In this document: one piece after another, positions 5,838-54,068 of the stretch
How positions within the stretch are numbered: the stretch's first letter is position 1
Layout of the letters: every line of letters begins with the position of its first letter
Source: Nemertoderma westbladi
Lineage: Eukaryota; Animalia; Xenacoelomorpha
Direction of reading: 5' to 3'
Assembly (NCBI GenBank): GCA_032718475.1
Contig: JAUCBJ010008580.1
Span: forward strand, 15,958 to 79,957
DNA: 64,000 nt
The notes under the pieces: model-generated
Seen by the model: only the letters and a program-made list of their open reading frames with translations
Told to the model about the DNA's origin: nothing
Database searches by the model: none
Made by a program: the position numbers and the translations under genes

Positions 5838-5959
5838 GTTTGATTGTACGATTGAATGCCTACTACTATAACGACAGTTAAAGCAAGTCTAGTAATTCAG
5901 TATCAACTGTTAGCCTAGTAATTAATTACCGATATCGTTACTTAATGTAACGCGATATA

Positions 5960-20899: not shown

Positions 20900-20911
20900 G
20901 GGTCGGGGGCG

Positions 20912-21335: not shown

Positions 21336-21643
21336 GTATGTTTAGTATTGATCCAGTTCTTACACAAGATATGCGCGATTTCCCTGTACCAAAGAATCGA
21401 ACAGACCTTAGATCCTTTATGGGATTAGCAAACCAATTGGGAGATTTTGACCACAATTTAACAGCCATCCTAGAACCTCTACGTAGCTTAGACCGCAATC
21501 ATTCCACCTTTACCTGGAACAGCATATCAACAAGCTTTCGATGCTGCGAAATGCCTTCTCTCTATGGATAAATTCCTCACCTAATATTCTCCAGACCGGC
21601 AAACACAAATCCACACAGACGCATCTCGAGAGGGGGGGCCTCG

Positions 21644-29325: not shown

Positions 29326-29327
29326 TT

Positions 29328-32987: not shown

Positions 32988-34436
32988 CCCTATTACCACT
33001 GGGGTGTTTTGACCATTAGCACCACTGGGGGGGGGGGGGGGGGGGGGGGGCGATTCGGCCCACCCACTATATTTTTGTAGTCGTCTGATGAAATCCTACA
33101 AAAATTGGGCTGTTGGTGAAACAACTATAGATGAACACTACCAAATCTTAAAAAGTTAAAATTTCATAAGCAGGGTCTCATAATTTTGATGAAAAATAAA
33201 AGTAGTCCCAGGACAAAATTACAAAATTTTTCGTTTTATAAAAACTAATAGTGTGGCAGTGTTGGCTAGATTTAGTAGGTTTTTCAAGACGCTGAATCGA
33301 ATGTGATTATATTCCACTTCCAAAAATTGAAGTGGATGCTATTTTTCGTGCACCTAAGAAGTGGGCGTGGCACTTCAAATTTTGAAAAATTAGATATTCA
33401 GAAAATGCCCCTAATTTGTTTATTTCAACGCATCTTTATGGGTTTTCTGGCCGCTGAATCGATTGAAAGTAATATAGAAGCCTGAAGACTGAGTGGTTCG
33501 CCATTTTTGGTGCACCAAAATTAGGGCGTGGCACTTCAAATTTTGAAAAATACGAGATTCGGAAAATAAACCAAAATTGAAATTTTAACGAATTTATATA
33601 GGTTTTCCAGACCGCTGAATCGATTGAAAGTAATATAGAAGCCTGAAGACTTAGAAGTTAGCCATTTTTTGAAATCAAAACTTTAGTGTTTTTTCCGAAT
33701 AAAGAAATTTTGAAAATTTGAAGTGCCACGCCCTAATTTTGGTGCACCGAAAATTACGTACACAAAGGACTTGAGGCTTGCTTGGGGTTCTATATTACTT
33801 TCAATCGATTCAGCGCTCCAGAACACCTAGAAAATTAATTTGAAATCAAAACTTTAGTGAATTTTCCGAATCTCGCATTTTTCAAAATTTGAAGTGCCAC
33901 GCCCTAATTTTGGTGCACCAAAAATGGCGAACCACTAAGTCTTCAGGCTTCTATATTACTTTCAATCGATTCAGCGCTCCAGAAAACCTATAAAAATGCT
34001 TTTCAAATCAAAACTTTAGTGTATTTTCCGAATCTCGTATTTTTCAAATTTTGAAGTGCCACGCCCTAATTTTGGTGCTCCAAAAATGACGTACCACCTC
34101 ACTTACATACGTGTATAGAGCATTAGAGTAATCCAAACCAATAAAAATAAATAAACATAGCCCAAACATAAATAATTACTAAATCACGAATGACTTTGTA
34201 AAATTCGAAAATTTCAAAAAATTTGGTGCTGGAGACCAAATTTTGAGGTGGCACCCACATCGAAAAGTAGAAATCCAATTGCAACGGCGTTTTTTGCAAA
34301 AGATGCGGCATTAAATTTGGCTAATTCTCACAAAAAATTGGGCCGGTACGTAATGTGGTTGCATAGTTACAGCAACTAAAACCTAGGAAGGGGCCGATAC
34401 GCCCCCCCCCCCCCCCCCCCCCCAGTGGTAATAGGG
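32988..34436. mobile_element. piggyBac-type MITE
   Basis: TTAA TSD; perfect 17-bp TIR CCCTATTACCACTGGGG / CCCCAGTGGTAATAGGG; internal ~170-bp units in head-to-head arrays. Confidence 0.9.
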
Positions 34437-34758
34437 TTAAAGGCCACCAATTATTCTACAAATCTTAACGCCTAAGAATATTTATTTTCACTTTCAAACC
34501 TTTTTAACTACAAGCGTTTGAAAAGTGTTTTATTGAGTCTATTTAATTACTATCTATTAGGGAGAAGGGGGGGGGGGGGGGGACTGGACGCAAAACCCCT
34601 TCTTGGCGAATTAATATCCCGCCTTGATGAATTATTTCACTATAAGGTAGCATTTGTAGTTTAACTTTAACGTAAAAACTTTTGAAAATCCGACGTATTT
34701 TGATTAAGTTACAGTAATGTAATATGCCTATTTATATTTGTACACATAAAACCCTTAG

Positions 34759-34849
34759 GTACTCTCGTGGCGTAGTGGTCAGATGGTTAAGGCGTTGGTT
34801 ACATTACGTAGGTTATGAGTTCGAATCCCAGTCGGGAAATTTGTATTTT
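34759..34849 (+). ncRNA. tRNA-like Pol III cassette in the LTR (not a canonical tRNA); second copy at ~51924-52014
   Basis: A box TGGCGTAGTGG, tRNA-Ser/Leu-like TGGTTAAGGCG, B box AGTTCGAATCC, then TTTT. Confidence 0.55.
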
Positions 34850-34883
34850 GGGGCAATTTATTTTCGTGTGGTGCTAATTGATA

Positions 34884-35131
34884 GGCCAATGAGAAGCGTA
34901 CAGCGTAGCGAATAATGAGCCAGGCCAATCATAGGGCATAAATTACCTTATTGCTCAAATGTGAGGCAGTGGAAAATTCTGTTAGGATTCCATGTCCCAG
35001 ATTAGTGTAAGGGCTGGACTGCGTTGAACGATGAGCTGGGCCAATCATAGGGCACGACGCACTTCATTGCTCAATTGTGAAGCTGTGGAAATTTCTGTTT
35101 AGTTTCCATGTGCAATTTCTAGTATATAAGG
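34884..35131 (+). promoter_or_regulatory. Putative Pol II promoter in the LTR: three GCCAAT boxes and a TATA box
   Basis: GGCCAAT at ~34884, ~34923 and ~35039 within duplicated enhancer-like units; TATATAAG at ~35123. Confidence 0.55.
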
Positions 35132-36897
35132 CCGGTTTGCCTTCGGTTATGACTTCTACCCCCTTCGCTTCCAACGTTACTCTATCAGTTTACTTTTGTA
35201 AAATTAGTTAATTCGGTTTCTTGTTGAAACTTGTTTGATAAATCCTTTGTTAAAACTGTAAATATACTGCAATTTCCTGACATGTTTTCCTTTGGTCCGA
35301 CTTCGGGACAGCCGAACACCAGGGAGATGGCAGCCTAGACCGTTAGGCCATAAGCAACGCAGGGAAGGGATGTCCACAACACGCTAGCGCCCACATTGGA
35401 TCGACCGCGCACCCCCTTTGCCCCCCTTCGAAATGCTCAACTTGCCATGCAGCGCCCGCTTTGTGAGAAAGGTAAGACTTTGTTCGACGCCCTTGCCCGC
35501 CGTAAGACCTATAGATCAGGGTAAGCGTGACACCGCACTGGACGCCGCAAATTTAGGATCAAATAATTATATCCAGACACCCCCCCCCCTTCTTGTCAGT
35601 CCTACGAACCCCTGGGTTAACCTGTACTTCCTACAGGTGCGAACTATTGCCATTCGTCAGTACGCGAGTACACATTAGGCACGGACAGCATATGTTCCAT
35701 AATTTAGTGAGTCGTAGCACTGACTGTTTGGTACCGGTTCGCTTTGTAGAACGTACATTAGTACCCCCCCCCCCCCCTTGTCTGGAGTTAGCTATTTGAT
35801 CAGGCAAGGAGTATTTCTGCTACCGGCACACTGCTTGGCCTAGGGAGGTTTATTAATATCCTACCGCGCCTTGCCACGTACTGATAGGTATTGCTGCTAA
35901 CTACCGCAGCAACAAAGTTCTAGAATTAAATTAGTATACCAGATCAGCTAACGTACGGTAGCGATTAACCCCTATTCTTATCTTACAACCAGAATCTGGT
36001 ATTAGTGCCGATCACGGGTGTAGTTACTAACACTGTGGTTGCCCATTGGGTTGTGGATAGGAAGGAGAGAGCTTTGACGTCATTCGTGAGTATAAAGTTC
36101 TACAAACGCGACTAGTTTATTTTAGTAGCTAGCGCACGGTATCATTTTAGTCAGAAAATCACTAAAACCTAGTAAAAGGAATTACCCGAAATTGTTTTAT
36201 TTGTAACACACCCACACACACACGCCCTAAAACATATCGCCCTTAAAGTTCTACTAGCTATAGCGTACTATACATTACGTTAGGTGGAAATTATTTGTAT
36301 TTGTACAATTAGGATCTGATTTGATTGCGGCAAGATAAGGAGTATTTCACTTTCGTTATTAAACTGTTGTTTGTCTGGACAACGGTATTGTTACATTTAG
36401 GCCTGACCCTTTAGACTGATTTCGTACAGGGGGATCAGTTATTGTTACATTTAGGTACGACCCCTTTTCGACTGATTTAGGACTGTCAGTGTTGTTACGC
36501 TAGGTCTGTTAACCCACTAGCTCGTATATAACCCATATAAATCACACCGCGGCAAGTTACTGTATTTAGGACTGTCAGTGATAGTTAGGATTCGCTGCGT
36601 GGGGATTGTTTTCCCGTGAGTTTGGTCTGTTACGGTAACTGTACATCTGCCTCACCGGTTAGAGGACAGGTATCCTTCTGTCTAGTACGTAGGCATTAGA
36701 CCCGCTCACGTACATAGAATAGATACAAGGCTCTGTTCCTCGCCAGTAGTCGTTTGTGTACTATATCTGTTTGTTTAGATATCCTGGACTGGGATTTGTT
36801 TTCAGATACTGTACAAGCCCGTATACATTACTAGAGTCTCATAGTAAGATACATCGTTACTAGGATCTGGTAAGCGGTATACTACTGGACCCTTACA

Positions 36898-36908
36898 GTA
36901 GGAAGTAC
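36898..36908 (+). promoter_or_regulatory. Non-tRNA primer-binding site of BEL C (GTAGGAAGTAC)
   Basis: Abuts the LTR end; exact reverse complement GTACTTCCTAC at 35624-35634 (and 52794-52804). Confidence 0.62.
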
Positions 36909-37803
36909 TATATAAATTAGTTTATAGTATTATTTCGATTGTTAGCTATTGAAAGTAGGAGATATTAAAATTTAAGGTTAGTAAATTTAGTAATTTAGAA
37001 CGTCCCCTGCTTCAGTAGGCTTTTAGGGTAGCTAGTACTTTCGTATTTAATCTTTGACTAGCTAACAGTTAGTTTGTAGCACTTTGTTTTACGCCGTGTG
37101 TGTGCGGTGTTACTTTTCGGTACTTGAAAAGGTACATAGGGTTTAAAGACCAATTTGTATCGGTACCTAGGAAGATTTTTCGTAAGCGTAGAAGTAAAAC
37201 TCTCACCTTCGACCTTTTCAGGACTCAAGGACTCATTTCTGGACCGCTTCGAGGATTAGACCGCTTTTCGCAAAGTTTGGGAGACAATAAATTCGTCCGC
37301 GCCGCCGAAAAACGGAAAGACCCACGTCCGGTTTGTATTTGGGAATTTGTACGACTGGAAGATCAAAGGAACGTAAGTTTTACGACTCGCGTCGTTTAAA
37401 CTTAAGAAAGCACAGTAGTACTCAAAATTTGTGGGTTTCACTGTCTATTAGTAGTGTTGTTGGTACATATTTTCCCTTTAGACGTTGCTGTTTGGCCTAT
37501 TGTTTTACTTGTTGATCTACATTTTGTTAACGTATATCGTTATCTCACTTATTCGTACAAATTTAGCCGGTAGGCTAGATTACTACTTATTTTATTATAT
37601 ACCTTGTTAGTTTATTTGTACCGGTTAGGGTATATATATGATATATATATATATCAAGGTAAGTTTGACATTTGTGCATTTCGACATTTTGACATTTCGA
37701 CATTCTGACTTGTTGATTTATTTGTACCGGTTAGGTAAGTTTGACACTTCAACATTCAGACACTTGACATTTTATTACCCGTACTTGACGTATATAATAA
37801 GAC

Positions 37804-40800
37804 ATGAGTGACACACCCCATTCGACGAGATACCCACCTACCGACTATGACTCGTGCGACCCGGACAGATCGACAGTAGACGAACCTAGAAGGAGAACCC
37901 GAGATTCCACCGATGTCACACCGCTTGCGTCGCCGGTACCCCAAACGGAAATACCGGAAGCCGCAACGCGTGGCGACGGCAGAATCGAAGATTTCCTTAC
38001 CGTCCCGCAGACTAGATCGCGGGAACCGGACATGGTAAGTTCGACTGGGAGCCAGGAGAACGTTATTAGAAGTATAGGAGGACACATGGCCCAGATTACT
38101 CGGAACCTCGGAGAAGGTTTTCGCGTTTTACGCGAGTTAACCGCCCCGATGTCGAGATACGAGTTCTACACCTTACAGGTAAGGATAGAAAGTAGGGTAC
38201 ATGCCTCCGTAGATAAACTTAAAGGTTTGCACGAACTTGCAGAGTTGCGTGGCGACAACTTTACTCAGGTAAAGATAGTGGATAAATTGGTAAGTGCGAG
38301 AGAAAGCATTATCCAGTTTAAGTCGGTAATAAGCTTGGCTCAACAGGAGCAGTTCGACCAACTGCTAGGTGAGTCAGTTTCGGACGCGTTGTTACAACCC
38401 GAAGAGGAAGAAGAACTCTACTGCCTGGACGGAAGGTTGGAAACGCTGACCAATTTTCTTCGTAGATGCGGCGTACCGATCGACGAACCGGAAGTCGAAC
38501 CGCGAGGGACGACGGAAGTTCTCACTACGGAAGGCTCGCGAGCCTACCAACATCCACCACTGGATAGATCGTTCGTTAGCGTACGGAGCGACGTTGGCAA
38601 CGTTGGCGACGTTAGTAGAACAGCGTCTGGAATTACTCGACAACAACAGGAGGTTGCACGCCGACAACAAGTCGCCGAGGAAGAAGCGCGACACCAGATG
38701 GCACAGATCGCCATCGAAGGAGAGAAACAACGTAGAGAAGACGAGGCAAAAATTGCACAACTCAAGGCGCAAGCTGAATTCGAAGCATCAGAAATGCGCA
38801 GATTGGAGGAAGACTTAGCGCGAGAAGCGGCCGCGGCGGCAGCAGCGGACGAGTTAGCACGGAAGAAAGCAGCATCAGACGCTCGTGCCAAGTTGGAGGC
38901 GCGGCAAATAAACGCTCGATTAGCTATACAGGAAGCGGAATTAGCGGCACAACAACAGGACGCAGATCGACGCGAAAGGGAGATGCAACTACAGTTCGAA
39001 TTGAATCGTAGATCGCGCGAGACAGCGAACGCGCAAGCGGACCTCGAACTCGACGCGAGAGATAGATCTATGAGATCGCGGACTGGACACGACTTGTCTG
39101 CCCTGGATCGTATGGAAGCTCGATATCGCGGAATACAGAAGCGGATCGAGGAAGGAAGCGTGGGAGCGATAGATCGAGGAGAGGAGTTCGTCGAGGATTA
39201 CTGTAAACGTTTTCCCCAAGTTATTCCTATGCTCAAACCCACGACTCCGATAAAACCGGTCTTCGTTACGAAACCTAAGGAAATAACGCCAGTGCGTTCG
39301 ACGCAAGGCAACAGGTTTGTTGTGACGGAAATACCGCAACCTAGGGCGACTTCATCGCCAATTTTAGCAGGTAACGTTACTAGTCCACCTACAGTAAGTC
39401 GTAGTCTACTTGTAGGAAGAGAGGAACCTGCGTTTATGACCATTAAACAGGTGAGTAAACCATTACAAGTTAAACCTGTGACGTGCTGTGCAAATCCAGT
39501 TATTTACAGACCGACTACGAAACCCGACTATTTCACTCGACCGTTGACACAATGTTCGACGCAACCTACGACTTCGTGGAAGGCTTGCGAGCCTACCGAA
39601 CTACGAAGGAGGATGGATGTGGGTAGTACTCACGGGATCGGACAACGTATAGCGAGACCTACGACTTCGTGGAAGGCTTGCGAGCCTACCGAACGACGGA
39701 GAGCCGTAGATTCCGGACCACAACGGACGAGACCCAGGATAATACGCCGGACACGAACCCGCCAGCCACCTTATCCGGACGACAGCGATTCATCTAGTGA
39801 CTCGGAGTCGACGGAACGGGAAATATTCCGTACTGGAGCGGCGGAAGATTGTAAACGGGAGGAACGATCGACGAATCCATACATCGACAATCCTCCACGA
39901 GAAACACCCCAACAGAAACCCACGTTGAAACCAGCGGAAACGATCAGCGCTAAACAGTTCACCGAGATGACGGACAGAATAGCTCAACTCGAAGAACGAC
40001 TCGAAGCGCAACCGTCGGATCGATCACGGACCAGCGTGGAATTGGAACAACCTAGACAACATCGACCACCGAGGAGAGAACAGGAGACTAGACGGACTCC
40101 GACACATCGAGAGGAAGATCCCGTTAATAATTCCTACCGACGAACAACGCGCGGAAGGGAGCGACTGGACGACGCCACCGAACAAGGACGCGGACAGTTG
40201 GATTTAGTTAGCGAGATTGCGAAATTCGCGGCTAGACACGGATTACCGGCACAGCAACCGCCGAAGTTCTCTGGCAACGCGAAACACTGGCGCACACTGG
40301 TAGACTACGTAGAGTCCCAGATCGCTAAGTGTGCTTTCACCTCGACGGAGAAGTTTAACTACTTGCTCCAAGTCCTGTCTGGTGAGCCGAAACGATTAGC
40401 GGAAACCTTTATAGGTGTTCCCGATGCCTTCGAGTTGGCGTACGACCGTTTGTATTCGATTTACGGCGGTAATGTCGCCATGGCTAAATCCATCATAGAA
40501 GACCTCTGCAGAGGAGGCAACATTTCGAGACCGATCGATCTTTTACGACTCGCGGACGAAATAAAGAACGCTATAGGGACTTTACGGTCCATTGGGCAAC
40601 TCGAGTACGCTAACGCACCGACGGTTCTCATTCGAATAATCGGTCGACTTCATCATCGACTACGACGAGAATGGCGACGCATCGAGTACCAGCGCGAAGA
40701 GGCCGGAGGGTTATTAAAACTCACCGATGTCTATCAACTTATTTCACGGGAGGCCGTGATCGAGACTCGATCGAACTATACCGATCACCATATCGCGGCG

Positions 40801-43800
40801 GAAGGGATAACTGTTTCTGCGCCGAATCGGACTAAACCATTTCCGACGAACGCGAAAGCCGTTACTTACGCCACCCCTACTGAGACTTCTAAAGTTCTGA
40901 CGCCTATCGGCACCACGCAGCCACGACAACAGTTGCCGGCGGACTTTGTGGGATGCTCATACTGCGAGCGGAACGGCAGAAACCATAGCGGACATAAACT
41001 ACGTGCATGTCGCGCTTTTAAAGAGTTAGGGATCGAGGAGAGGAGACTCCAAATCCGATCTCTAGATTCCTGTTGGAGATGTATGAAGCCAGGACACGTC
41101 CGGAAGGATTGCCCGAGCGATGATACATGTTCTTTGTGTGGACGTAACCATGACGCGTTGCTTCACACAACCAGTCATACTCCGACCCGACGCTTTCGAC
41201 GAGAGCATCCAGATAAAGCGGCTAGATGCGACGCGCTTTATAAGGAGCGTGCGCCGCGCGAGATCCGTACCTTTTATACCGACTGTATGGATCAGTCAGG
41301 ATCATCGGAAGAGGACGAGGAGGAAGACGACACTTTCTACGTGCATGCAGGTGAGGAACAACCATCGATAACGCTCCTCACACAGAACCAATTGAAAGGG
41401 TTTAGCGTGATTCCTATAAAGATTACCGGGACCCGAGGGAGCAAGCGTATATACGCCATCTTAGACTCTGCGTCATCGCATAGCTATGTCGACGAACAAG
41501 TAGCCGACGTAGTTACGGACTTGAGTCAAGGTAAGACTGCTCAGTATACTGTAAGCAGCATGCATGGTAAGAGAGCGATTCCTGTGACAAGAGTAAAACT
41601 AACTTTAGACACTCTTCTTTCCAAAGCGGAACACAGCAAGGAGGAGCGCTCATTACTTCCGGTAAGAAATTTGACCTTTGCAGCTACGAAGGACTTTAGT
41701 AACTTGCTCGGCCCTGTGCCAGAGCAATCTCCGGAAGATCGTAAGTATTTCCGACACCTTGGAATACCGGAATGTCCTGTCAATTATCGTTCCATTGCGA
41801 TGTTAATTGGGACAGACCAGTTTAACTTACATCAGGTATGGGAGACACGCCCATCTGTTATTACAGCGGGCAACCCCTACGCATGTAGAACTCCCATAGG
41901 TTGGTATACTAGAGCACCAATACGTTCACTAGAGGTAAGTGACCAGGAGGACGACGTTTTGAGTACGTGTAGTTTATTGACTAACACGATAGATAATTCT
42001 CCCTCACACTCCTGTGGTCCAATTGTACGGACGGCACTACGACAGACTTGCGTCACTAACGCAGACGCCACCGATACTGACGTAACCGATCTGGACACGA
42101 CCATACGGACCTCTGACTTACAACTACTTGCAGTAGACCAGGTTGTATTGACTACTGAAGACCTGAGGGTTGTTGCTGTGGATGACTCGATGAACGAGGA
42201 TTTTGGAAGGCTTGCGAGCCTACCGAAAAATCCGAAGGTCATTGACCCCACCCACCAGGCTTCGACACCGGTCGTTGATCTTGGAAGGCTTGCGAGCCTA
42301 CCGATAGATCAAGAAGTTGTCAAACCGCCGCACGACAATTCGACGCCGACTAGTGACACCGGAAGGCTTGCGAGCCTACCAGACACATTGACACTAGCCA
42401 CCGCAGCGGACGAAGACGTGGACGAGGACCATGGCGCAGTGCAAGCAGCGCTTGACCGACTGCTGACTGAACGGACCATACAATGGTTGGAACAGGACTC
42501 AGCAGAACCCGGTAGTTACGAGACCGCTATGTCAGAACAGGAAAAACGGTCATTAAATATTATGAGAGATACCATTCGCCAGACCGCGAATGGCCACTAT
42601 GAGGTTGGTATGTTGTGGTGCAATGGACAACCTAAGCTCGTTAACAATTACCCGCTTGCTTTGAGGCGACTCAAATCAATAAGGCAGCGATTGTTGCGAG
42701 ACGAGACGGCCCATATGCAATACAATGCACAACTTCAGACGTATCTCCAAAAGGGATACGCCATTAGGATGTTAAATCCTGAGGTAACTACAGACCAGAC
42801 ATATTACCTGCCACATCATTTTGTTCGACACCCGGACAAACCTGGCAAGGTGCGTGTAGTCAACGACTGCGCTGCACTTTACCAAGGGATGTCTATGAAT
42901 AGCGAACTGATGGACGGGCCGAATATGAACAATTACCTCATGGGAGTCCTAATGCGTTTTAGACAACGCAAAGTGGCTTTCACCTGTGACGTAGAGGCCA
43001 TGTTTCACCAGGTTAAGGCTTTGGAGCGGGACAGGGACAGTTTGAGGTTTCTTTGGTATCCGGACGGAAACTTACAACTTCCGCCAGAAACTTACCAAAT
43101 GCAGGTAAGAGTATTTGGAGCCAGGGACAGCCCCAACTGCACCATGTACGCATTGAAGCAGACAGCATTAGACAGACGAGACCAATTTGACCCAGAAGTA
43201 GTTCGGACCATGGAACGAGACTTCTACGTGGATGACGGCCTCAAGAGTTGTGACACCTTGGAGCGCGCTACAACCGTAGCACACCAACTCCAGGATTGTC
43301 TCGCTGAGGGCGGATTTCACCTGACGAAGTTCGCTTCCAACGAACCCGAACTGGTGAACTCATTTGACCCGATGGACCGTAGCGGAGGTGACTTGGACTT
43401 AGACCTAGAACCTCTGCCGACGACCAAAGTACTAGGACTTAGTTGGGACCCTAACACCGACAATTTTAGGGTACGTGTAAGGTCCAACGACCAGACTAGA
43501 CCTCTCACTAAGAGGACTTGCTTATCGACCATGAGTCGATTGTATGACCCATTGTGTTTCATTAGTCCAGTGATCCTACATGCCAGGATCATACTCCGCA
43601 GCATTTGGCAAGCCGGACTGGAATGGGACGATCCCATCCCAGAAAAGTTAGCTGAGCGATGGAGGGACTGGGAAGCCCAACTGACGTTCCTACAAGACTA
43701 TACCATACCAAGGGTATACTTTCCTTTGCAAACCACCTTTCCTGCCGATTTAGAGCTTCACAGCTTTAGTGACGCTAGCAAGGATGGATTGGGGGTTACT

Positions 43801-46644: not shown

Positions 46645-47382
46645 ATGTGGGACCTTGGTTGGCCGCCACATAGACCTACTGTATTTTAGTTATTTGTATT
46701 TGTATTACTGTACGTGCATTTGTAATCCTCTTCACTGTAGATAGAGACAGCGGTGGAATTCCATTGTCTTTATACGTGAACATGGAGGGTAGTACCCTTA
46801 TGTATCACATAGGAGCGGGATTGTGTGTACAGTAGGAATGGAATTCCACTTGGAACCCACAAGTGAGACATTTTCAAAAATTATTAGACAAATCCATTTA
46901 TTTGGATTTAAATTTAAGAAAAACGATTCTCCAGTGAAAGCAAATTCTAGAATACAGCTAGAAAAAAAAAAAAATTAAAATTGGGGAGGACAAGAGCGGA
47001 TGGAAGGCTTGCGAGCCTACCGATAAATTTTTTTTGGAAAAGAAAATCGGTCTTGTTCTACGTAGTCGTGTCTACTATTATTTTGACCAATTAATTCTCG
47101 ACTGCACTATTTTTCTTGGAAAACGTAGTTTGGGAAATTAAAAGGTGAGTATTTTAGACTCGCGGCTAGTTTACCCGGAATTCGTTTTTTATCGGCACAA
47201 TTTTGGATTAGGAGCCAGTGCGAAATTACGCGAACCCGAAATCATTAGGCAAAATGGGTTGGGGTTTAGAGCAGAGTTGAGCCAAAAGCCGACAAACTCT
47301 GAAGTCACCTCACATCTAACCTCTATTTTGTGCTTCATCTAGTAGAAACGTAACGATATGTAACCACATATATTCGTATACA

Positions 47383-50300
47383 ATGGAGAAGATGTATAAA
47401 GAGTTACGTCAAGGGTTTACGCAAGAACAGGAGCACCAGGCGCCATTTAATCGTTATGGAGCTAAAAACTTTAGTGTGTTTGGAGTGGAGAGTATGGCTA
47501 GGAGTACAGCCAAGCTCGCTAAATCCAAGGCGGACCCGAATGTTACGCGACAGCGGTTGGACGCATACAACAAAAGAACGGAGGAATTACGCGCGGAATA
47601 CAATGCGTTATATCCCTACGATGCGTTATGCGACGCTAGCGACATTTGCGAGGATCCAGACACCGAAATACGCCGATTGTATCATACGCTGCAATATTTG
47701 ACGGTAAACGAACCTTTACCTGCAGCTAGAGACGAATTTGAAGGAATGCATCTTTATAGACGCGCTCGAGGAGCGGATCCAGAGACCAAGGATGCGTTTT
47801 CCGTATATAAACTGTTCTATAAATGCGGAGCGTGTATGCGCGAGCAAGACAACGCGATTCCTATGCGGTTGAACTCGGAGAACCCCGAGCCGATATTAGC
47901 GCGATGTTCACACCACCAAAGTCTACGTTATCAAGAAGGCGGATACCCTTTGACAAACCCGTATCATTCGTTTAAGATGAGTGGACCAAACGCGGGTGAA
48001 ATTGTTATTTACGAACCAAAATTAGTCGAACCAGACGTCTACAGTATGGTAGTGGACGAGTCTAATAAGTCGACACAAGAGAAACGGGAAGCTTTGAGCC
48101 TCTACAGGGCGTACAAGGCGTACGAGAAAGGCGAGATCGAGGAGTTCGGCGGAAGGCTTGCGAGCCTACCATTCTATTGGATATCCCACGATCAAACCGA
48201 ACCCAAGGAGATGACACCCGAGCTCTTCGATAGTATCACCTTTGCTCAGCGTTTGTCGCAGAGACTACAGATACCTCACGTTGAGATGACGCGAGAACCT
48301 CAGCCCCATTCTACTGGAGCAATAGTACCGGTTGCGAGACCAACTAGTTTTCCTATTAGTATACCGACCCGGAAGGAGACAACTTACGAGATCCCTATAG
48401 TTGAACACCCGGAGATCATCTCGAACCTGGATTTCCTCCCATCGGTCACCTTCGGTGATGTGTTAGAATCAACCGAGTTGCGTAAAGTAATAGTTCAAAA
48501 AATCGTACGCAACGTGCCTCCACATATCACGGACTTTAAGGAAGTGGATCGCGCGGGGACGGATATCGCACCTTGTATCTTGCGAGGATATCTGACGAAA
48601 ACGATTCGATTATGGATCGGAGTTGGGACGTTTGAGACCGACACCGATATCGCGACCAATTGGACTGGTAAACCTATTAGTTTCGATGATGAAAAGTCGA
48701 TCGGGAGAATTTGGAACCCTACCGATGATTTACTCGACGATTGGGACGTGACTAGCCGATCTCTAAAAGAGAATGGATATATGTTTTACGATAATGAAGG
48801 AGGAAGCCATCAGCAAAGCCTCACTTCAAAGACGATACAGATTAGAGCACCAGATGGCGTGTTACATGTCTTCAGCCGACAGAGGAGTGATAGGAAGATG
48901 CCTATGCCGGAAGGAACGACGCAAAGACACGCGATGATAAAACGGATAGTTAAATCCATGGACCTGGCTTGTAGCATAGAAGCTAGGATGTTGCCAAAGG
49001 CCGTACGAGACGTTGTGTTGGATAAGAGCATCGTCAAGATCGGATCCGGTGTACGGGATGACCTCATTAGCGACTTTGCAGGGATGCCCACGGAAGAGGA
49101 CCGATTGCCTACGCCATACGTGGATACTAGACCATTGTTGCTTTGGGCTATTAAGCAAGGATACTTTAGAGAGTATAACACGCTAAAAACTGGGACGGGT
49201 TATATCTCATATCTGATGTTCAGTTGGGATTACAAGGAGAGTAAGAGGAACAAATACACGGACGTATACGGAGAGGGAGATACCCCCGGCGTAAACGAGT
49301 TCGAGTCACAGTTGAAGTGGCGAGGTTGCGTGTATTGGGCGATTACTTCACCTCCGCGGATAATCTTGCAATATTATTTAGCGATAGAATCTTCGGTTAA
49401 CGTTTGTTTCATCGCGGACGTAGTATCCAGAACCTTAAAGCGACACCCGTTATGTCTTGGCGAAGGACATACCTTTTACGATGGAGGAAGGACGCATACT
49501 GATGTATTCCGACGATTTCTCCAACCCTTTTATAACACCGATGCGCACTGCGAAGTTTTCACGCGAGCGGGACTTAGCGTTTTCAGGGACGTCTATCTCA
49601 CTCACGCGGGAAGTCTAGTCGACAGACCGTCGATGTTAACGTTAGTACCCTATGACGGGGAACGCCACGCGGAATTCGAACGCCCGGAAGGATCCTGGAA
49701 GGCTCGCGAGCCTACCGCCCATCATGACGATGTGGATCCGACCGAGTTGGCGCTAATAGACGAACCGTTACGGCAACTCATAGAAATAGAAGAGAACCTT
49801 CCAAGGAAGACGCGAACTGAGATACGCGAGTTAGAGAAAAGCGATGCCATGGTTTGTGTACAACCTACGGAGACGAACATACCGACTGACCCGGATGATG
49901 AGAATTATCACGTGGACGGTAGCGCTCGCCCCATCGGAGACCTCATCTATGAGCGAGTTTGGTATCCTGCCAACACTATTTGTGGCAGATGTGGAGCAAC
50001 TGGCCATCACGCAAAGAAGTGCGGAGCGAAGCACATATCTCTACCGGATTTAGTATGCAACTGGTGCGGGGATCAACGTTCGCACACTTTCTACACTTGC
50101 TGGCGTTTCGTGGCGCAGTGTACTTATTGTAATATTAAGGGCCATAGGGCATCGGAATGTCAACTTAGAGACGTCCCCTATGAGCACATGTCAGTTAAAA
50201 TCGTTCGACAATTATTCGACCATTGGGAGGACCTAGCAGACGAGCATGTATCGACGCAGCGACGCCGCTTCCCTATGAGAGCACATTTGGGATTTTGGGC

Positions 50301-51135
50301 CGTAAACCCTCTCATAATGTCAAAGGAAGGATATGTATCGGCTATGCCTCAGTACGATGAATTGTTGGAGGTATTGGATATATTGCCGTTGGACAGTGGA
50401 TTCAAGGTTGTGCGGGATTATTTCTTACAAGTGCACCCCGACAACAAGAATACTTGGAACTTTCAAACTGTGGTGAACAAGATTACCGCCGGAGAATTCG
50501 ATAAACTGCGAGTTGAACAGCGGAATCGAGGAGCCTGGCATTCGATAGCTTGGGCATACCGGAGCGCATTTTATCACAAACGCGTAACCTCGTGCATTCT
50601 GGACGAGACCGACGTTTTGCGTGAGACTGGCTTCAAGGCCACGCCGTTAGCGGAGAAGACGCGTCACCCACAGGATGATCAGCAATTTCGTATACTCAAA
50701 GCCCAAAAGGCCGGACAAGAGATTAAGAAGATAGTGAATGTCGCCGAGAGGACGACATCGAAGTCGCAAATCCGGATGACTCGGGGCACGGTTTCCCTTG
50801 CTAGAGAACCACGCGGAGGGACAGGATACGCTTTGACTGAACCCATTAGGATTCAAACGACGTCAGAGAGCGAGGTGTCAACGGACGGAACAGTCCTACC
50901 CTTTCGACTTCCTCCTAGCGTTGTAGAAACTCGATCCGATATTAAGTCGACAGTTGGAATCGGACGAGGATTTAGAGGATTGAGCGCACGACGGATGTGC
51001 GAAACCCCCGTCGTCCCCTTTCCTAGCGTTTTGGAACCACCGACAACTCGACGCCGAAGTCCGAGCCCTGTTCGACCTCGACCACCCCCCAATCGCACTA
51101 GAGGACGTGGACGAGCCCGCTCAGCGAAGGAATAG
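47383..51135 (+). CDS. Accessory ORF2 (1250 aa): putative DEDDy 3'-5' exonuclease-like domain, 3 CCHC zinc knuckles, Arg/Ser/Pro-rich tail
   Basis: ExoI MFYDNEG..KTIQIRAPDGVLHVF (48781); ExoII LPKAVRDVVLDKSIVKIGSGVRDDL (~48990-49065); YVDTRPL; ExoIII-like W..TSPP..LQYYLAIE (~49335-49390); knuckles CGRCGATGHHAKKC, CNWCGDQRSHTFYTC, CTYCNIKGHRASEC (49981-50160); no signal peptide or TM segment seen. Confidence 0.85.
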   Translation: MEKMYKELRQGFTQEQEHQAPFNRYGAKNFSVFGVESMARSTAKLAKSKADPNVTRQRLDAYNKRTEELRAEYNALYPYDALCDASDICEDPDTEIRRLYHTLQYLTVNEPLPAARDEFEGMHLYRRARGADPETKDAFSVYKLFYKCGACMREQDNAIPMRLNSENPEPILARCSHHQSLRYQEGGYPLTNPYHSFKMSGPNAGEIVIYEPKLVEPDVYSMVVDESNKSTQEKREALSLYRAYKAYEKGEIEEFGGRLASLPFYWISHDQTEPKEMTPELFDSITFAQRLSQRLQIPHVEMTREPQPHSTGAIVPVARPTSFPISIPTRKETTYEIPIVEHPEIISNLDFLPSVTFGDVLESTELRKVIVQKIVRNVPPHITDFKEVDRAGTDIAPCILRGYLTKTIRLWIGVGTFETDTDIATNWTGKPISFDDEKSIGRIWNPTDDLLDDWDVTSRSLKENGYMFYDNEGGSHQQSLTSKTIQIRAPDGVLHVFSRQRSDRKMPMPEGTTQRHAMIKRIVKSMDLACSIEARMLPKAVRDVVLDKSIVKIGSGVRDDLISDFAGMPTEEDRLPTPYVDTRPLLLWAIKQGYFREYNTLKTGTGYISYLMFSWDYKESKRNKYTDVYGEGDTPGVNEFESQLKWRGCVYWAITSPPRIILQYYLAIESSVNVCFIADVVSRTLKRHPLCLGEGHTFYDGGRTHTDVFRRFLQPFYNTDAHCEVFTRAGLSVFRDVYLTHAGSLVDRPSMLTLVPYDGERHAEFERPEGSWKAREPTAHHDDVDPTELALIDEPLRQLIEIEENLPRKTRTEIRELEKSDAMVCVQPTETNIPTDPDDENYHVDGSARPIGDLIYERVWYPANTICGRCGATGHHAKKCGAKHISLPDLVCNWCGDQRSHTFYTCWRFVAQCTYCNIKGHRASECQLRDVPYEHMSVKIVRQLFDHWEDLADEHVSTQRRRFPMRAHLGFWAVNPLIMSKEGYVSAMPQYDELLEVLDILPLDSGFKVVRDYFLQVHPDNKNTWNFQTVVNKITAGEFDKLRVEQRNRGAWHSIAWAYRSAFYHKRVTSCILDETDVLRETGFKATPLAEKTRHPQDDQQFRILKAQKAGQEIKKIVNVAERTTSKSQIRMTRGTVSLAREPRGGTGYALTEPIRIQTTSESEVSTDGTVLPFRLPPSVVETRSDIKSTVGIGRGFRGLSARRMCETPVVPFPSVLEPPTTRRRSPSPVRPRPPPNRTRGRGRARSAKE

Positions 51136-51169
51136 GAAGCGAGTGGAAGGAAGGCTTGCGAGCCTACCG

Positions 51170-51280
51170 ATTTGGATATTATATTTGGATATTATATTTG
51201 GATATTATATTTGGATGTTATATTTGGATATTTTATTTGGATATTTTATTTGGATATTTATATTGGACATTATGTTTGAA
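51170..51280 (+). repeat. 13-bp tandem repeat (TTTGGATATTATA), ~8 copies
   Basis: Directly visible in the 3' UTR of element C, between two hairpin motifs. Confidence 0.85.
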
Positions 51281-51782
51281 TGTTGGGTTTGGAGGAGCGA
51301 GATATGGAAAGGAAGGCTTGCGAGCCTACCGTTAGCAATTAGTGCTCAGGAGAAGATATCCAGACCAGCAGGACGAACTTTTAAGATCGTCAGGAGGACA
51401 TTATTGAAAATTATTAGCGCATTATGTTTATATTATATTTGGACTGATTTAATTTGGTGAAGGTTTATTATGTATATTTACAATATATAAAGATTTATCG
51501 AAAGAGTTGATTTATTTGTTTGATTTGTTTGAATTATTTGTTTTGATTTGTTTATTTGCTTATATTGATAACCGAAAGCCTTTTTTTGTATTTTAGGCAC
51601 TAAAGTTAATTCGTAAATTTGTATGTACGATCGATTGTATTTACGCCGTATCTGCAATATTAAGTATGCAATGATTAGATAGTGATTATATTTTATATTT
51701 TAGGCCCTACCAGTAAATTTAGAAATAGTTTGTAGATATTTTATATTTGATTGGTGAAAACAGTCTTACTTACTGTTTTCAT

Positions 51783-51789
51783 GGAGCGG
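51783..51789 (+). promoter_or_regulatory. Polypurine-like tract before the 3' LTR
   Basis: GGAGCGG|TG; element B has GGGAGCGG|TG at the same position. Confidence 0.7.
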
Positions 51790-54068
51790 TGATGAATTAT
51801 TTCACTATAAGGTAGCATTTGTAGTTTAACTTTAACGTAAAAACTTTTGAAAATCCGACGTATTTTGATTAAGTTACAGTAATGTAATATGCCTATTTAT
51901 ATTTGTACACATAAAACCCTTAGGTACTCTCGTGGCGTAGTGGTCAGATGGTTAAGGCGTTGGTTACATTACGTAGGTTACGAGTTCGAATCCCAGTCGG
52001 GAAATTTGTATTTTGGGGCAATTTATTTTCGTGTGGTGCTAATTGATAGGCCAATGAGAAGCGTACAGCGTAGCGAATAATGAGCCAGGCCAATCATAGG
52101 GCATAAATTACCTTATTGCTCAAATGTGAGGCAGTGGAAAATTCTGTTAGGATTCCATGTCCCAGATTAGTGTAAGGGCTGGACTGCGTTGAACGATGAG
52201 CTGGGCCAATCATAGGGCACGACGCACTTCATTGCTCAATTGTGAAGCTGTGGAAATTTCTGTTTAGTTTCCATGTGCAATTTCTAGTATAAAAGGCCGG
52301 TTTGCCTTCGGTTATGACTTCTACCCCCTTCGCTTCCAACGTTACTCTATCAGTTTACTTTTGTAAAATTAGTTAATTCGGTTTCTTGTTGAAACTTGTT
52401 TGATAAATCCTTTGTTAAAACTGTAAATATACTGCAATTTCCTGACATGTTTTCCTTTGGTCCGACTTCGGGACAGCCGAACACCAGGGAGATGGCAGCC
52501 TAGACCGTTAGGCCGTAAGCAACGCAGGGAAGGGATGTCCACAACACGCTAGCGCCCACATTGGATCGACCGCGCACCCCCTTTGCCCCCCTTCGAAATG
52601 CTCAACTTGCCATGCAGCGCCCGCTTTGTGAGAAAGGTAAGACTTTGTTCGACGCCCTTGCCCGCCGTAAGACCTATAGATCAGGGTAAGCGTGACACCG
52701 CACTGGACGCCGCAAATTTAGGATCAAATAATTATATCCAGACACCCCCCCCCCCCCCCTTCTTGTCAGTCCTACGAACCCCTGGGTTAACCTGTACTTC
52801 CTACAGGTGCGAACTATTGCCATTCGTCAGTACGCGAGTACACATTAGGCACGGACAGCATATGTTCCATAATTTAGTGAGTCGTAGCACTGACTGTTTG
52901 GTACCGGTTCGCTTTGTAGAACGTACATTAGTACCCCCCCCCCCCCCCTTGTCTGGAGTTAGCTATTTGATCAGGCAAGGAGTATTTCTGCTACCGGCAC
53001 ACTGCTTGGCCTAGGGAGGTTTATTAATATCCTACCGCGCCTTGCCACGTACTGATAGGTATTGCTGCTAACTACCGCAGCAACAAAGTTCTAGAATTAA
53101 ATTAGTATACCAGATCAGCTAACGTACGGTAGCGATTAACCCCTATTCTTATCTTACAACCAGAATCTGGTATTAGTGCCGATCACGGGTGTAGTTACTA
53201 ACACTGTGGTTGCCCATTGGGTTGTGGATAGGAAGGAGAGAGCTTTGACGTCATTCGTGAGTATAAAGTTCTACAAACGCGACTAGTTTATTTTAGTAGC
53301 TAGCGCACGGTATCATTTTAGTCAGAAAATCACTAAAACCTAGTAAAAGGAATTACCCGAAATTGTTTTATTTGTAACACACCCACACACACACGCCCTA
53401 AAACATATCGCCCTTAAAGTTCTACTAGCTATAGCGTACTATACATTACGTTAGGTGGAAATTATTTGTATTTGTACAATTAGGATCTGATTTGATTGCG
53501 GCAAGATAAGGAGTATTTCACTTTCGTTATTAAACTGTTGTTTGTCTGGACAACGGTATTGTTACATTTAGGCCTGACCCTTTAGACTGATTTCGTACAG
53601 GGGGATCAGTTATTGTTACATTTAGGTACGACCCCTTTTCGACTGATTTAGGACTGTCAGTGTTGTTACGCTAGGTCTGTTAACCCACTAGCTCGTATAT
53701 AACCCATATAAATCACACCGCGGCAAGTTACTGTATTTAGGACTGTCAGTGATAGTTAGGATTCGCTGCGCGGGGATTGTTTTCCCGTGAGTTTGGTCTG
53801 TTACGGTAACTGTACATCTGCCTCACCGGTTAGAGGACAGGTATCCTTCTGTCTAGTACGTAGGCATTAGACCCGCTCACGTACATAGAATAGATACAAG
53901 GCTCTGTTCCTCGCCAGTAGTCGTTTGTGTACTATATCTGTTTGTTTAGATATCCTGGACTGGGATTTGTTTTCAGATACTGTACAAGCCCGTATACATT
54001 ACTAGAGTCTCATAGTAAGATACATCGTTACTAGGATCTGGTAAGCGGTATACTACTGGACCCTTACA
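51790..54068 (+). repeat. 3' LTR of BEL C (2279 bp)
   Basis: Direct repeat of the 5' LTR; differs in two poly-C lengths and ~4 substitutions. Confidence 0.97.

Follow-up and report, generated by a model that had tools for sequence, protein, structure and literature searches.

BEL/Pao retrotransposons usually measure 4.2–10 kb and carry LTRs of 0.2–1.2 kb (PMC3118150). ORFs coding for DEDDy-type exonucleases are described in LTR retrotransposons of bdelloid rotifers (PMC5408684), self-priming is known in the Tf1/Sushi, Tcn1 and TAR lineages (PMC6317226), and dispersed packaging-signal hairpins are documented for icosahedral RNA viruses and HBV (PMC9065705). In RSV, the nucleocapsid (NC) protein's N-terminal zinc finger binds G residues within psi SL-C's UGCG tetraloop, and a UGCG to GAGA change in this loop abolishes high-affinity NC binding (PMC5035970). 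The retrotransposon analyzed here is intact and spans 34625–54068 of the 64-kb window (the whole stretch of DNA that was analyzed). With 19.4 kb and 2.27-kb LTRs, it exceeds the dimensions usual for BEL/Pao (PMC3118150), in line with the first-pass annotation, where typical BEL/Pao elements had been called much shorter. Its additions to the usual BEL/Pao content are an ORF of 1250 aa other than env, 12 hairpins, and a primer site that is not of the tRNA type. The boundaries and main parts were the following:

34620–34624 and 54069–54073, no strand: left and right copies of the target-site duplication CGCCT
34625–36897, + strand: 5′ LTR, 2273 bp, TG..CA
37804–46644, + strand: ORF1, 2946-aa gag-pol (DUF1759 gag, CCHC knuckle, Pao peptidase A17, RT-RNase H, integrase, DUF5641)
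47383–51135, + strand: ORF2, 1250 aa, matching no family in a Pfam search and with no transmembrane-like segment seen
51790–54068, + strand: 3′ LTR, 2279 bp, with a short GGAGCGG as the only purine-rich stretch upstream

The two LTRs were 99.56% identical over 2279 columns (four substitutions and two indels, the latter in poly-C runs), the 5-bp duplication was the same on both sides, and exactly two long ORFs were found, both on the + strand. A young element with near-identical LTRs, a perfect target-site duplication, and two open long ORFs, as had been annotated from the start, was thus recovered. DNA contigs matching the element at at least 90% identity numbered 19316 (X1) and 7942 (X3) and fell into three identity bands. 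They speak for an active, multi-copy BEL/Pao family, of which the element is a young, recent insertion. Among the 29 single-base coding variants listed from DNA contigs, 22 were synonymous and 7 nonsynonymous.

Judged from its Pfam matches, ORF1 is a BEL/Pao gag-pol: Peptidase_A17 (E 1.4e-39), DUF1759, DUF5641, and Integrase_H2C2 were all matched, which bears out the affiliation proposed earlier. The element shares with BEL/Pao (Belpaoviridae) the A17 peptidase, the DUF1759 gag, the PR-RT-RH-IN order, and the DUF5641 tail; its gag-pol is likewise one ORF, its LTRs run TG..CA, and its duplication measures 5 bp. PF05380 was present in 120 of the 120 pol relatives listed, and the identity of pol to any sequence found was at most 42% (the top value among those listed). 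The polyprotein is ~900 aa longer than the listed relatives of 1650–2600 aa.

The 20-mer GGAAGGCT[T/C]GCGAGCCTACC occurred in 11 copies on the + strand, with 0 expected from 100 shuffles. A covariance model added a 12th, diverged copy (23.4 bits, E 3e-4), and the 12 repeated hairpins of the first-pass annotation were therefore counted correctly. All of them lie on the sense strand of the internal region, spread across 12.8 kb; the LTRs and the 44 kb of window outside the element had none. The copies, and a tandem repeat beside two of them, were located as follows:

38529–38548, + strand: hairpin 1, CGCG loop, ORF1 aa 242, frame offset 2
39578–39597, + strand: hairpin 2, ORF1 aa 592, frame offset 1
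39671–39690, + strand: hairpin 3, ORF1 aa 623, frame offset 1
42205–42224, + strand: hairpin 4, ORF1 aa 1468, frame offset 0, first of a trio at exact 78-nt spacing
42283–42302, + strand: hairpin 5, ORF1 aa 1494, second of the 78-nt trio
42361–42380, + strand: hairpin 6, ORF1 aa 1520, third of the 78-nt trio
45058–45077, + strand: hairpin 12, the diverged copy GGAAGGCCCGTGGGCCTACC, CGUG loop, ORF1 aa 2419, frame offset 0, stem U-A changed to C-G
47002–47021, + strand: hairpin 7, between the ORFs, an A run before and T8 after
48151–48170, + strand: hairpin 8, ORF2 aa 257, frame offset 0
49697–49716, + strand: hairpin 9, CGCG loop, ORF2 aa 772, frame offset 1
51149–51168, + strand: hairpin 10, 3′ UTR, 14 nt past the ORF2 stop
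51170–51278, + strand: 13-nt tandem repeat ATTTGGATATTAT, 8.4 copies, separating hairpins 10 and 11
51311–51330, + strand: hairpin 11, 3′ UTR

The motif is a near-palindrome with the core AGGCU-UGCG-AGCCU, and nine copies are identical. Its tetraloops have the form YGYG (UGCG in nine, CGCG in two, and CGUG in one), the second and fourth loop positions being G in 12/12. Translated in frames 0, 1, and 2, the hairpin reads GRLASLP, WKACEPT, and EGSRAY, respectively, and all seven ORF1 hairpins fall outside the blocks alignable with four other BEL polyproteins. Since copies are found in all three frames, in the UTRs, and in lineage-specific linkers, selection appears to act on the nucleotides. Comparison of the three 78-nt units showed 20/20 invariant positions in the core and 8/58 in the flanks; an intact core between flanks decayed near randomness argues for long-term constraint and not for recent spread. 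Stem cells were paired in 77 of 77 cases over the hairpin copies, and the compensatory support consists of one event (the U-A to C-G change of hairpin 12), a level reached in 49 of 500 shuffles. Stems extended into the flanks were not significant by permutation (p 0.12 and 0.066).

Two regions were distinguished within ORF2:

48700–49482, + strand: candidate DEDDy-type exonuclease-like domain, ORF2 aa ~440–700 (D470-N-E472, D559/D560, Y665..E669)
49981–50160, + strand: three CCHC-type zinc knuckles, ORF2 aa 867–880, 892–906, and 913–926

The three knuckles agree with the earlier description, and their sole PDB profile matches were to retroviral NC proteins, all weak (E 0.67–7). For the nuclease domain that had also been claimed, the outcome was divided: of the 30 ESM Atlas feature hits obtained with residues 400–770, 24 were within the PF01612-carrying set (score 0.91) and the D-x-E / D / Y-x3-E motifs aligned with the one distant homologue (P0003), but the domain was unmatched in Pfam, PDB, NCBIfam, and PHROG, even with HMM searches admitting E values up to 10, and two AlphaFold predictions gave pLDDT of 31 and 29, too low for use. 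The domain is taken as a lead only; it would adopt a DEDDy-type exonuclease-like fold and bind or trim RNA 3′ ends. The final acidic residue of its signature would be E, not D.

By description, ORF2 is like the accessory ORFs 3′ of pol in the bdelloid Juno and Vesta LTR retrotransposons and in Athena/Terminon, which code for DEDDy-type 3′-5′ exonucleases, as ORF2 likely does; bdelloid ORF3 is likewise without a transmembrane segment and has a variant acidic signature, and some Vesta ORFs bear a Cys-His-Cys zinc motif, where ORF2 bears CCHC knuckles (PMC5408684). Homology of the bdelloid ORF3 was strong by HHpred, whereas the ORF2 domain was undetectable by HMMs. The bdelloid ORFs also sit in gypsy-like and Penelope-like elements, ORF2 in a BEL/Pao element, and neither a triple CCHC knuckle nor repeated hairpins, both present here, are reported for the bdelloid elements (PMC5408684). 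The earlier view that such traits lack an explanation in print is partly outdated, namely with regard to DEDDy ORFs, as those of bdelloid LTR elements are published (PMC5408684).

ORF2 would be expressed from a spliced subgenomic RNA, with the donor near 37373 and the acceptor near 47342:

37373–37378, + strand: candidate splice donor GTAAGT, cut after AAC, in the 906-nt leader
47320–47342, + strand: candidate splice acceptor, a pyrimidine-rich tract ending in TCTAG at the cut, 41 nt before the ORF2 ATG

In DNA run X4, a single contig links 37370 with ORF2 through a 28-letter filler that, read by eye, resembles 47341–47373, which places both joint ends 1–3 nt from GTAAGT and the TCTAG acceptor. 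The splice signals claimed earlier thus hold insofar as a donor and an acceptor flank this one DNA-contig joint; the GTRAGT hexamers, however, were judged not enriched, with 14 in 16.3 kb vs ~8 expected from length, which is not beyond chance. Further GTAAGT copies are present in the leader at 37659 and 37735, and a minimal ATG-TAA is at 47358, before the ORF2 ATG.

The sequences relevant to priming were these:

36898–36908, + strand: primer binding site GTAGGAAGTAC, directly 3′ of the 5′ LTR, not TGG-type
35624–35634, + strand: candidate self-primer GTACTTCCTAC, exactly complementary to the primer site, with a second copy at 52794–52804

The missing TGG start confirms the annotated non-tRNA primer site, and no tRNA genes were found in the window (ARAGORN, default settings). 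The exact 11-nt complementarity between LTR and primer site had P = 0.00185 (20,000 shuffles, offsets 0–3), and the candidate self-primer lies within the hairpin CCTGTA-CTTCC-TACAGG (35621–35637). This complement suggests Tf1-like self-priming, where LTR-derived RNA (35624–35634) annealed to 36898–36908 would prime reverse transcription. Against it, the pairing probability of primer and primer site was at most 5% in thermodynamic folding, and the best TATA/Inr-like site lies 26 nt upstream of the 11-mer, which is not at a predicted 5′ end. As with Tf1/Sushi-type self-primers, there is no tRNA-type site and the 11 nt after the 5′ LTR complement the element's own LTR RNA (PMC6317226). Here, however, the complement precedes the primer site by 1274 nt and is at best a putative transcript 5′ end, and the element belongs to BEL/Pao, whereas Tf1/Sushi, Tcn1, and TAR (plants) are Ty3/gypsy and Ty1/copia lineages (PMC6317226). 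Our literature search found no paper on self-priming in BEL/Pao.

The reading that we tentatively favor, as a possibility somewhat short of probable, is that the 12 hairpins of this multi-copy BEL/Pao family are putative RNA sites for the element's own CCHC knuckle proteins. The knuckles of Gag (one, at ORF1 aa 1090) and/or ORF2 would bind the YGYG-tetraloop hairpins acting as RNA, and the bound hairpins would be many marks along the ~17-kb genomic RNA that serve its recognition, its packaging, or the assembly of particles. RSV psi SL-C is similarly a short UGCG-capped stem of a CCHC-encoding retroelement, and its loop G residues stack in a zinc-finger pocket (PMC5035970); it is, however, a single copy in the 5′ leader, whereas the 12 hairpins here, as putative binding sites, are dispersed through coding sequence and UTRs. 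The UGCG to GAGA change leaves the selectivity of full RSV Gag in vitro unaltered, which counts against binding by knuckles (PMC5035970). The dispersed packaging-signal hairpins of ssRNA viruses are also many short stem-loops with a common recognition motif, coding regions included, but they are degenerate and the present ones almost identical (PMC9065705). The putative spliced ORF2 mRNA would retain the four hairpins from 48151 on, so that these alone cannot single out the full-length RNA. Against packaging, retroviral packaging signals are located in the leader, unlike the dispersed hairpins here, and to our knowledge dispersed packaging-signal hairpins are not known in LTR retroelements.

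The motif could instead act by RNA-RNA pairing with no protein, its copies dimerizing or compacting an unusually long genome, which we consider unlikely. Each 14–20-nt copy is self-complementary with G-U allowed, so copies on one or two genomic RNAs would pair; on the sense strand only, the core forms a palindrome that includes two G-U wobbles, the loops UGCG, CGCG, and CGUG are all self-complementary, and one orientation is kept over 12.8 kb. Retroviral and Ty1 dimerization sites are palindromes as well. The duplex would, however, contain a conserved A-A mismatch, and both loop changes are pyrimidine transitions opposite G; as three of the four possible loop transitions keep pairing, loop variation does not discriminate in favor of this reading. 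It is more doubtful still that the motif lacks an RNA function and is either a DNA-level palindromic protein site, comparable to the clustered Su(Hw) sites of gypsy, or a short stretch copied around through gene conversion or template switching in reverse transcription and tolerated in linkers. The near-perfect inverted repeat would suit the former, nine identical copies would also be expected from recent conversion, the ORF1 copies are confined to lineage-specific, probably unconstrained linkers, and a deletion joint in DNA contigs begins at 38550, 2 nt past hairpin 1. A symmetric DNA site, however, has no need of the asymmetric orientation kept by 12/12 copies (A..A mismatch; loop-1 T, not C, in nine), hairpin 12 is altered on both sides of one stem pair, and the 78-nt units retain the core between decayed flanks.

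Two further readings center on ORF2. It may be a hairpin-reading adaptor rather than a nuclease, binding the stem-loops through its exonuclease-like domain and knuckles and driving the nuclear export of unspliced RNA or its transport within the cell, although we would not expect so; Rev/RRE, CERV of Cer1, and Egalitarian are its analogues. The DEDDy-type domain of Egalitarian binds stem-loops, including the I-factor retrotransposon signal, with its catalytic residues dispensable for this binding (bioRxiv 10.1101/2025.08.03.668247), and CERV, made from a spliced Cer1 mRNA, is needed for genomic RNA export (PMC10309623). ORF2 appears to be under purifying selection (4/4 listed coding variants synonymous), but its acidic residues, apparently kept, are equally compatible with an active enzyme, and the exonuclease-like fold on which the adaptor would build is itself a lead. 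Rev/RRE and CERV of C. elegans Cer1 share with the element an extra gene 3′ of pol that would need a spliced subgenomic mRNA, and a cis RNA signal on the genome (PMC10309623). In contrast to them, splicing of ORF2 is only putative, the cis signal is a repeated 20-mer and not one large structured element as in Rev/RRE-type systems, and sequence similarity to these systems is absent, with none of ORF2 to Egl or CERV detected in the searches run. The single integrated system of the first-pass annotation, in which ORF2 knuckles dock on the hairpins while its nuclease trims a self-primer to a 3′-OH or degrades silencing host small RNAs, is speculation and, in our estimate, quite improbable. The non-tRNA primer site with its 11-nt self-complement and the 3′-5′ exonuclease-like lead are in its favor, and for the DEDDy ORFs of retroelements Rodriguez et al. 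considered 3′-end processing as well as a mut-7-like part in silencing (PMC5408684). Hairpin and primer, however, have just 5 nt (CCTAC) in common, and hairpins, ORF2, and primer site are linked only by co-residence in one element. In the known self-priming system, moreover, it is the RNase H of the element itself that makes the cut.

The following features were found in U3:

34762–34850, + strand: decayed tRNA-like segment, exact A box at 34768–34778, B box with one mismatch at 34818–34828, TTTT at 34847
51933 (A box) and 51983 (B box), + strand: the same segment in the 3′ LTR
35567–35601, + strand: candidate core promoter, TTATAT at 35567–35572 and TCAGTC at 35596–35601 (A at 35598)

The Pol III-like cassette of the earlier annotation stands as to its A box, B box, and TTTT, but no tRNA was found in this piece by default ARAGORN or Rfam; relaxed ARAGORN (85% threshold) reported a pseudo tRNA-Pro at 34762–34839. 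Capture of a tRNA/SINE fragment and its subsequent decay are the most likely origin of the piece. Within the 64 kb, the exact A box occurs in the two LTRs only. The core promoter was read by eye, and its two motifs, ~30 nt apart, are presumably TATA/Inr-like, as judged against the consensus.

The element at 34625–54068 (+ strand) is bounded by LTRs of 2273 bp (34625–36897) and 2279 bp (51790–54068), which were delimited by a direct-repeat search and by BLAST of the two ends. The LTRs are 99.56% identical and differ by 4 substitutions and 2 changes in poly-C run length. They end in TG..CA, a CGCCT duplication is located on either side of the element, and the total length is 19,444 bp. As the first-pass annotation had described, the interior contains two long, fully open reading frames, and the only further ORF of at least 150 aa in the element is antisense (164 aa).

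37804–46644, + strand, ORF1 (gag-pol), 2946 aa
47383–51135, + strand, ORF2 (second gene), 1250 aa

The domains found in ORF1 were DUF1759 (gag), a zinc knuckle, the Pao peptidase A17, an integrase zinc-binding domain, and DUF5641, with Peptidase_A17 (Pfam PF05380) in residues 1902–2063 at an E-value of 1.4e-39. A search with its pol part yielded 224 relatives (E ≤ 1e-20); PF05380 is present in 120/120 of those listed, and pol identity is 42% at most among the relatives listed. Compared with four BEL polyproteins, ORF1 gave collinear BLAST blocks in the order gag-PR-RT-RH-IN. Given the near-identical LTRs, the open ORFs, the ORF1 domains, and the pol identity of no more than 42%, the element is an intact and divergent BEL/Pao of very young age, and its earlier description as giant and recently inserted holds. 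The usual size of BEL/Pao elements is given as 4.2–10 kb, with LTRs of 0.2–1.2 kb (PMC3118150); the element is about twice the usual maximum, a descriptive criterion that leaves its membership unaffected. Ogre (16–25 kb) and Burro (>30 kb) elements, both gypsy-like, exceed it in size (PMC6431247). Most of the earlier observation holds, and the element is an unusual one.

In ORF1, residues of about 728–1453, 1551–2161, and 2431–2931 align to four ordinary BEL polyproteins (BLAST). No alignment was obtained for the N-terminal ~730 residues, a PR-RT linker of ~100 residues, and an RH-IN linker rich in S-P-D repeats, which is short in BEL relatives and ~300 residues long here. The remaining excess length is made up by a 906-nt leader, a 738-nt spacer between the ORFs, ORF2, and a 654-nt 3′ UTR. 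Inside the RH-IN insertion, 12/24-nt tandem repeats at 44457–44771 (ORF1 aa ~2220–2320) encode an S-P-D-type low-complexity peptide.

The peptides GRLASLP and (S)WKA[C/R]EPT occur in both ORFs and are two readings of one string, GGAAGGCTTGCGAGCCTACC. With up to 3 mismatches, the string was found at 11 places on the + strand (38529–51330; 0 expected from 100 shuffles), and two additional minus-strand matches were the two CGCG variants, which are fully palindromic. A covariance model made from the 11 copies, run on both strands of the window with no filters, gave one more site at 45058–45077 (23.4 bits, E 3e-4) and, besides palindromic echoes, nothing else under E 1. The count of 12 reported earlier was thereby reproduced. 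All 12 copies are on the sense strand; both LTRs and the leader are free of the motif, and so are the remaining 44 kb of the window, which are transposon-rich.

The hairpin has a 5-bp stem (AGGCU/AGCCU), below which lie an A-A mismatch and then GG/CC; its tetraloop is UGCG in nine copies, CGCG in two, and CGUG in one, a YGYG pattern in which 12/12 copies retain both G residues. Five copies are in frame 0, three in frame 1, one in frame 2, and three are non-coding; since the motif is read in all three frames and also outside coding sequence, selection is on the hairpin nucleotides and not on the peptide. Three units are spaced exactly 78 nt apart, and among these the 20-nt core is invariant, compared with 8 of 58 flank columns. 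In hairpin 12, the diverged copy, both sides of one stem pair are altered (U-A to C-G). The stem cells are paired in 77/77 cases, a figure reached by 49/500 shuffles and including one compensatory event only. Flank-extended stems were no better than those with swapped flanks when all copies were considered (p 0.12 and 0.066), although copies 4 and 5 look convincing. All seven ORF1 hairpins are within segments not aligning to other BEL polyproteins, and the two in ORF2 are located upstream of the exonuclease-like region and between that region and the knuckles, respectively.

In Rfam, the whole window had no match at the gathering score; with the threshold relaxed to E 10, the 3′ UTR, the LTR/leader, and the inter-ORF spacer also remained without one. 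The hairpin motif was not found in Rfam, nor its string in the literature searched, and viral contigs contained no match to the 20-mer. Public metagenome contigs yielded two single matches to it; one of these contigs (L001) is ORF-dense and resembles a bacterial contig, and the two matches were taken as chance and rejected as relatives.

ORF2 matched no Pfam family, no homologue was obtained by word search among 6069 candidates, and no relative was found in viral contigs. A search against 1.84 billion representatives returned one weak match (E 1.3e-4), a 558-aa metagenome singleton (P0003) for which no relatives were found. This distant homologue is collinear with ORF2 in two blocks, 485–656 (E 3e-9) and 867–1000 (E 7e-7), the latter comprising the knuckles plus the following stretch. 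In the ESM Atlas, the best match of the whole ORF2 (0.82, weak) was a cluster with PF01612 and zf-CCHC, and when residues 400–770 were used alone, 24 of 30 matches were in the PF01612 set (0.91). The consensus of DEDDy/DnaQ-like 3′-5′ exonucleases (PF01612) consists of D-x-E in Exo I, D in Exo II, and Y-x3-D in Exo III, and candidate positions were aligned by eye against this consensus.

Candidate exonuclease signature in ORF2 and its distant homologue P0003, read by eye
Exo I: ORF2 D470-N-E472; P0003 D71-T-E73
Exo II: ORF2 D559/560; P0003 D140
Exo III: ORF2 Y665..E669; P0003 Y247..D251 (ORF2 has E in place of the final D)

The Exo II-III spacing matches between the two proteins (105 in ORF2, 107 in P0003). 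The PF01612 profile gave no match to either at E up to 10, NCBIfam and PHROGs contained nothing meaningful for the exonuclease-like domain, and PDB sequence and profile searches with ORF2 returned NC knuckles only (E 0.67 or more). AlphaFold2 models of ORF2 had a pLDDT of 30.9 (single sequence) and 29.1 (2-row alignment), with all residues below 50. ORF2 probably contains a DEDDy-type exonuclease-like domain, which is kept as a lead because the HMM libraries see nothing and the AlphaFold pLDDT is low. The knuckles proposed earlier for ORF2 are confirmed (three CCHC), whereas the nuclease domain is a candidate from the ESM Atlas and the motifs with no HMM match. RNase D-like DEDDy ORF3s are described in the bdelloid LTR elements Juno and Vesta and in Athena/Terminons (PMC5408684; PMC6431247), and for the bdelloid ORF3s the acidic signature is likewise described as altered, with a Cys-His-Cys motif present in some of them (PMC5408684). 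No transmembrane-like segment was detected in ORF2 (top 19-residue Kyte-Doolittle mean 1.48), and for this reason its identity as an env of the kind found in env-carrying BEL/Pao or errantivirus-like elements was rejected; no viral glycoprotein family was matched in Pfam.

One canonical knuckle is encoded in Gag, and ORF2 carries three. In RSV, the N-terminal CCHC finger of NC is reported to bind psi stem-loop C through the G residues of its UGCG tetraloop; changing this loop to GAGA removes high-affinity NC binding and leaves the selectivity of full Gag in vitro unaltered (PMC5035970). The element hairpins share with the RSV psi hairpin a stem-loop with exposed tetraloop G residues, whereas retroviral psi is in the leader and the element has no hairpin copy between 36898 and 38528. 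In its many-site layout, the element is nearer to the dispersed packaging signals described for small RNA viruses (PMC9065705) than to the retroviral leader psi. Because the YGYG G residues are kept, the RSV UGCG loop offers a precedent, and the element encodes knuckles of its own, we tentatively read the hairpins as sites on the genomic RNA to which zinc knuckles bind. The knuckles of Gag and/or ORF2 would bind them along this RNA, leading to its recognition, packaging, or particle assembly.

Several other explanations compete with binding by knuckles. The copies might pair with one another as RNA, since on the sense strand, and on that strand only, G-U pairs make the motif complementary to itself. 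They could also recruit a transport or export adaptor, Egalitarian- or CERV-like, or take part in the primer trimming or anti-silencing suggested in the first-pass annotation. A site acting at the DNA level, or neutral spread of the motif, is a further rival to the knuckle-binding reading. The hairpin was also considered as the primer and rejected, as it shares just 5 nt.

A tRNA-complementary primer binding site is usual in BEL/Pao. Here, the 5′ LTR is followed by GTAGGAAGTAC..., not by TGG, and no tRNA gene was found in the window by ARAGORN at default settings. The first 11 nt of the primer site (36898–36908) complement LTR positions 35624–35634 at 11/11, as well as the equivalent 3′ LTR site; matches of at least 11 nt at offsets 0–3 were obtained with 37 of 20,000 shuffled LTRs (P = 0.00185). 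The missing TGG start and the exact 11-nt self-complement in the LTR agree with the non-tRNA-type primer site noted earlier, and the site bears a sequence signature of Tf1-type self-priming. Self-priming is known in the Tf1/Sushi, Tcn1, and TAR lineages (PMC6317226), and no description of it in BEL/Pao was found in the literature searched. The 11-mer at 35624–35634 is part of a 6-bp hairpin, and a TATA-like plus TCAGT-like (Inr-like) site, recognized by eye, would set the transcript start 26 nt upstream of the 11-mer and put it near the RNA 5′ end. In folding, the long-range pair between the primer and the primer site had a probability of 5% or less, which counts against self-priming.

Taken singly, the traits all have known analogues in other systems; as far as our searches reach, the combination in BEL/Pao is new, above all the frame-independent 12-copy hairpin. 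At its widest, and this we consider unlikely, the element would be a self-priming BEL/Pao with its own RNA-recognition system, in which a dozen knuckle-binding hairpins, placed in tolerant linkers and in all three frames of the 15-kb interior, are read by an element-encoded exonuclease-type RNA-binding fold and three knuckles as a multi-site packaging or transport code. If true, this would be a multi-site code such as small RNA viruses have, with no LTR retroelement case described so far, and it would extend both self-priming (Tf1/Sushi, Tcn1, TAR) and exonuclease-type accessory genes (bdelloid elements) to the least-studied LTR superfamily. A cis-acting 20-mer identical within coding sequence in three frames would be a rare and clear example of codon choice yielding to selection at the RNA level, and the element would provide a directly testable model of how a retroelement twice as large as usual labels and manages its genomic RNA of ~17 kb. 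Its small size makes the hairpin-knuckle pair accessible to simple binding and structural studies.

Splice signals for a subgenomic mRNA had also been proposed. GTRAGT was counted 14 times in 16.3 kb (~8 expected), and the motifs alone therefore mean little; both a donor and an acceptor of consensus type are there, without enrichment. One DNA contig from the sequencing run X4 joins 37370 to 47419 via 28 letters that, by reading, resemble 47341–47373, and the joint ends would then be within 1–3 nt of AAC|GTAAGT (37373) and the TCTAG| acceptor (47342). The joint, in one diverged DNA contig of one run, would fit a reverse-transcribed spliced ORF2 mRNA. None of the 15 joints listed was of the GT..AG type, and 37 further joints are outside that list. 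The leader contains a duplicated block at 37611–37745 (TTTATTTGTACCGGTTAGG...GTAAGTTTGAC), the two copies being separated by a 16-nt GACATTT repeat. As each copy ends in the consensus GTAAGT, the block may represent alternative donors or a leader intron.

The Pol III-like cassette noted earlier is located in the U3 of the 5′ LTR.

34768, + strand, A box, exact
34818, + strand, B box with one mismatch (10/11), 50 nt downstream of the A box and followed by TTTT at 34847

By spacing, the two boxes and the T run are a tRNA-like unit; these parts of the cassette are present, but default ARAGORN and Rfam did not recognize them as a cloverleaf. ARAGORN called no tRNA in the U3 piece at default or at thresholds of 90–95%, and made a call at 80–85% only; at 80%, 22 of 30 shuffles yielded one or more calls. 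Rfam tRNA gave no match in the piece at E up to 10. The piece is read as a putative decayed tRNA or SINE fragment, to which a mosquito gypsy LTR with a tRNA-derived insertion is a published parallel (PMC3286476). One of the four LTR substitutions (5′ LTR T at 34816, 3′ LTR C at 51981) is in the T-arm-like part, two bases before the B box.

Sampled words of 42000–51789 were present at 59–72% in four DNA runs of one organism label (A) and at 33% in X5, guessed to be an RNA run, of a second organism label. The contigs aligned to 35500–51210, 19316 from run X1 and 7942 from run X3, covered all 30 bins, their summed depth not being equal to copy number. Their identity to the element fell into three bands (99+, 95–99, and 90–95%), and therefore many diverged copies of the element exist. 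Among the best-supported 40 of 557 differences between copies, 22 of 29 single-base coding differences were synonymous and 7 were not; those in ORF2 were synonymous in 4/4 cases, a small sample. The predominance of synonymous differences indicates that both ORFs are under purifying selection across copies, the ORF2 sample being small. A deleted form joining 38550 to 47137, in which ORF1 is removed and the ends are not GT..AG, was present in DNA contigs of X1 and X3, and another joining 47942 to 51007 in DNA contigs of X4. The left break of the former falls 2 nt beyond hairpin 1. In the ORF1-ORF2 spacer, contigs of X1, X3, X4, and X5 depart from the window at 46643, 46746, and 46822, and the spacer therefore varies between copies. 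It also contains two palindromes centered on GGAATTCC, ~85 nt apart, at 46754–46856.

The window is a nest of transposons. Another BEL/Pao family, distinct from that of the element, is represented at 1–5888 (− strand) by a fragment that the start of the window truncates; the RT of this fragment is 46% identical to ORF1, DUF1759 was found in its ORF at 2997–4847, and it contains neither the hairpin motif nor ORF2-like sequence. Further retroelement pieces at 11700–12584 (−), 15786–23595 (+), and 29298–30584 (+) consist of RVT_1 fragments and a gypsy-like RT/RNase H/integrase series split over several ORFs. At 33660–34097, ~530 nt upstream of the element insertion site, there are three tandem copies spaced 162–171 nt apart and 80–100% alike over 105 nt.
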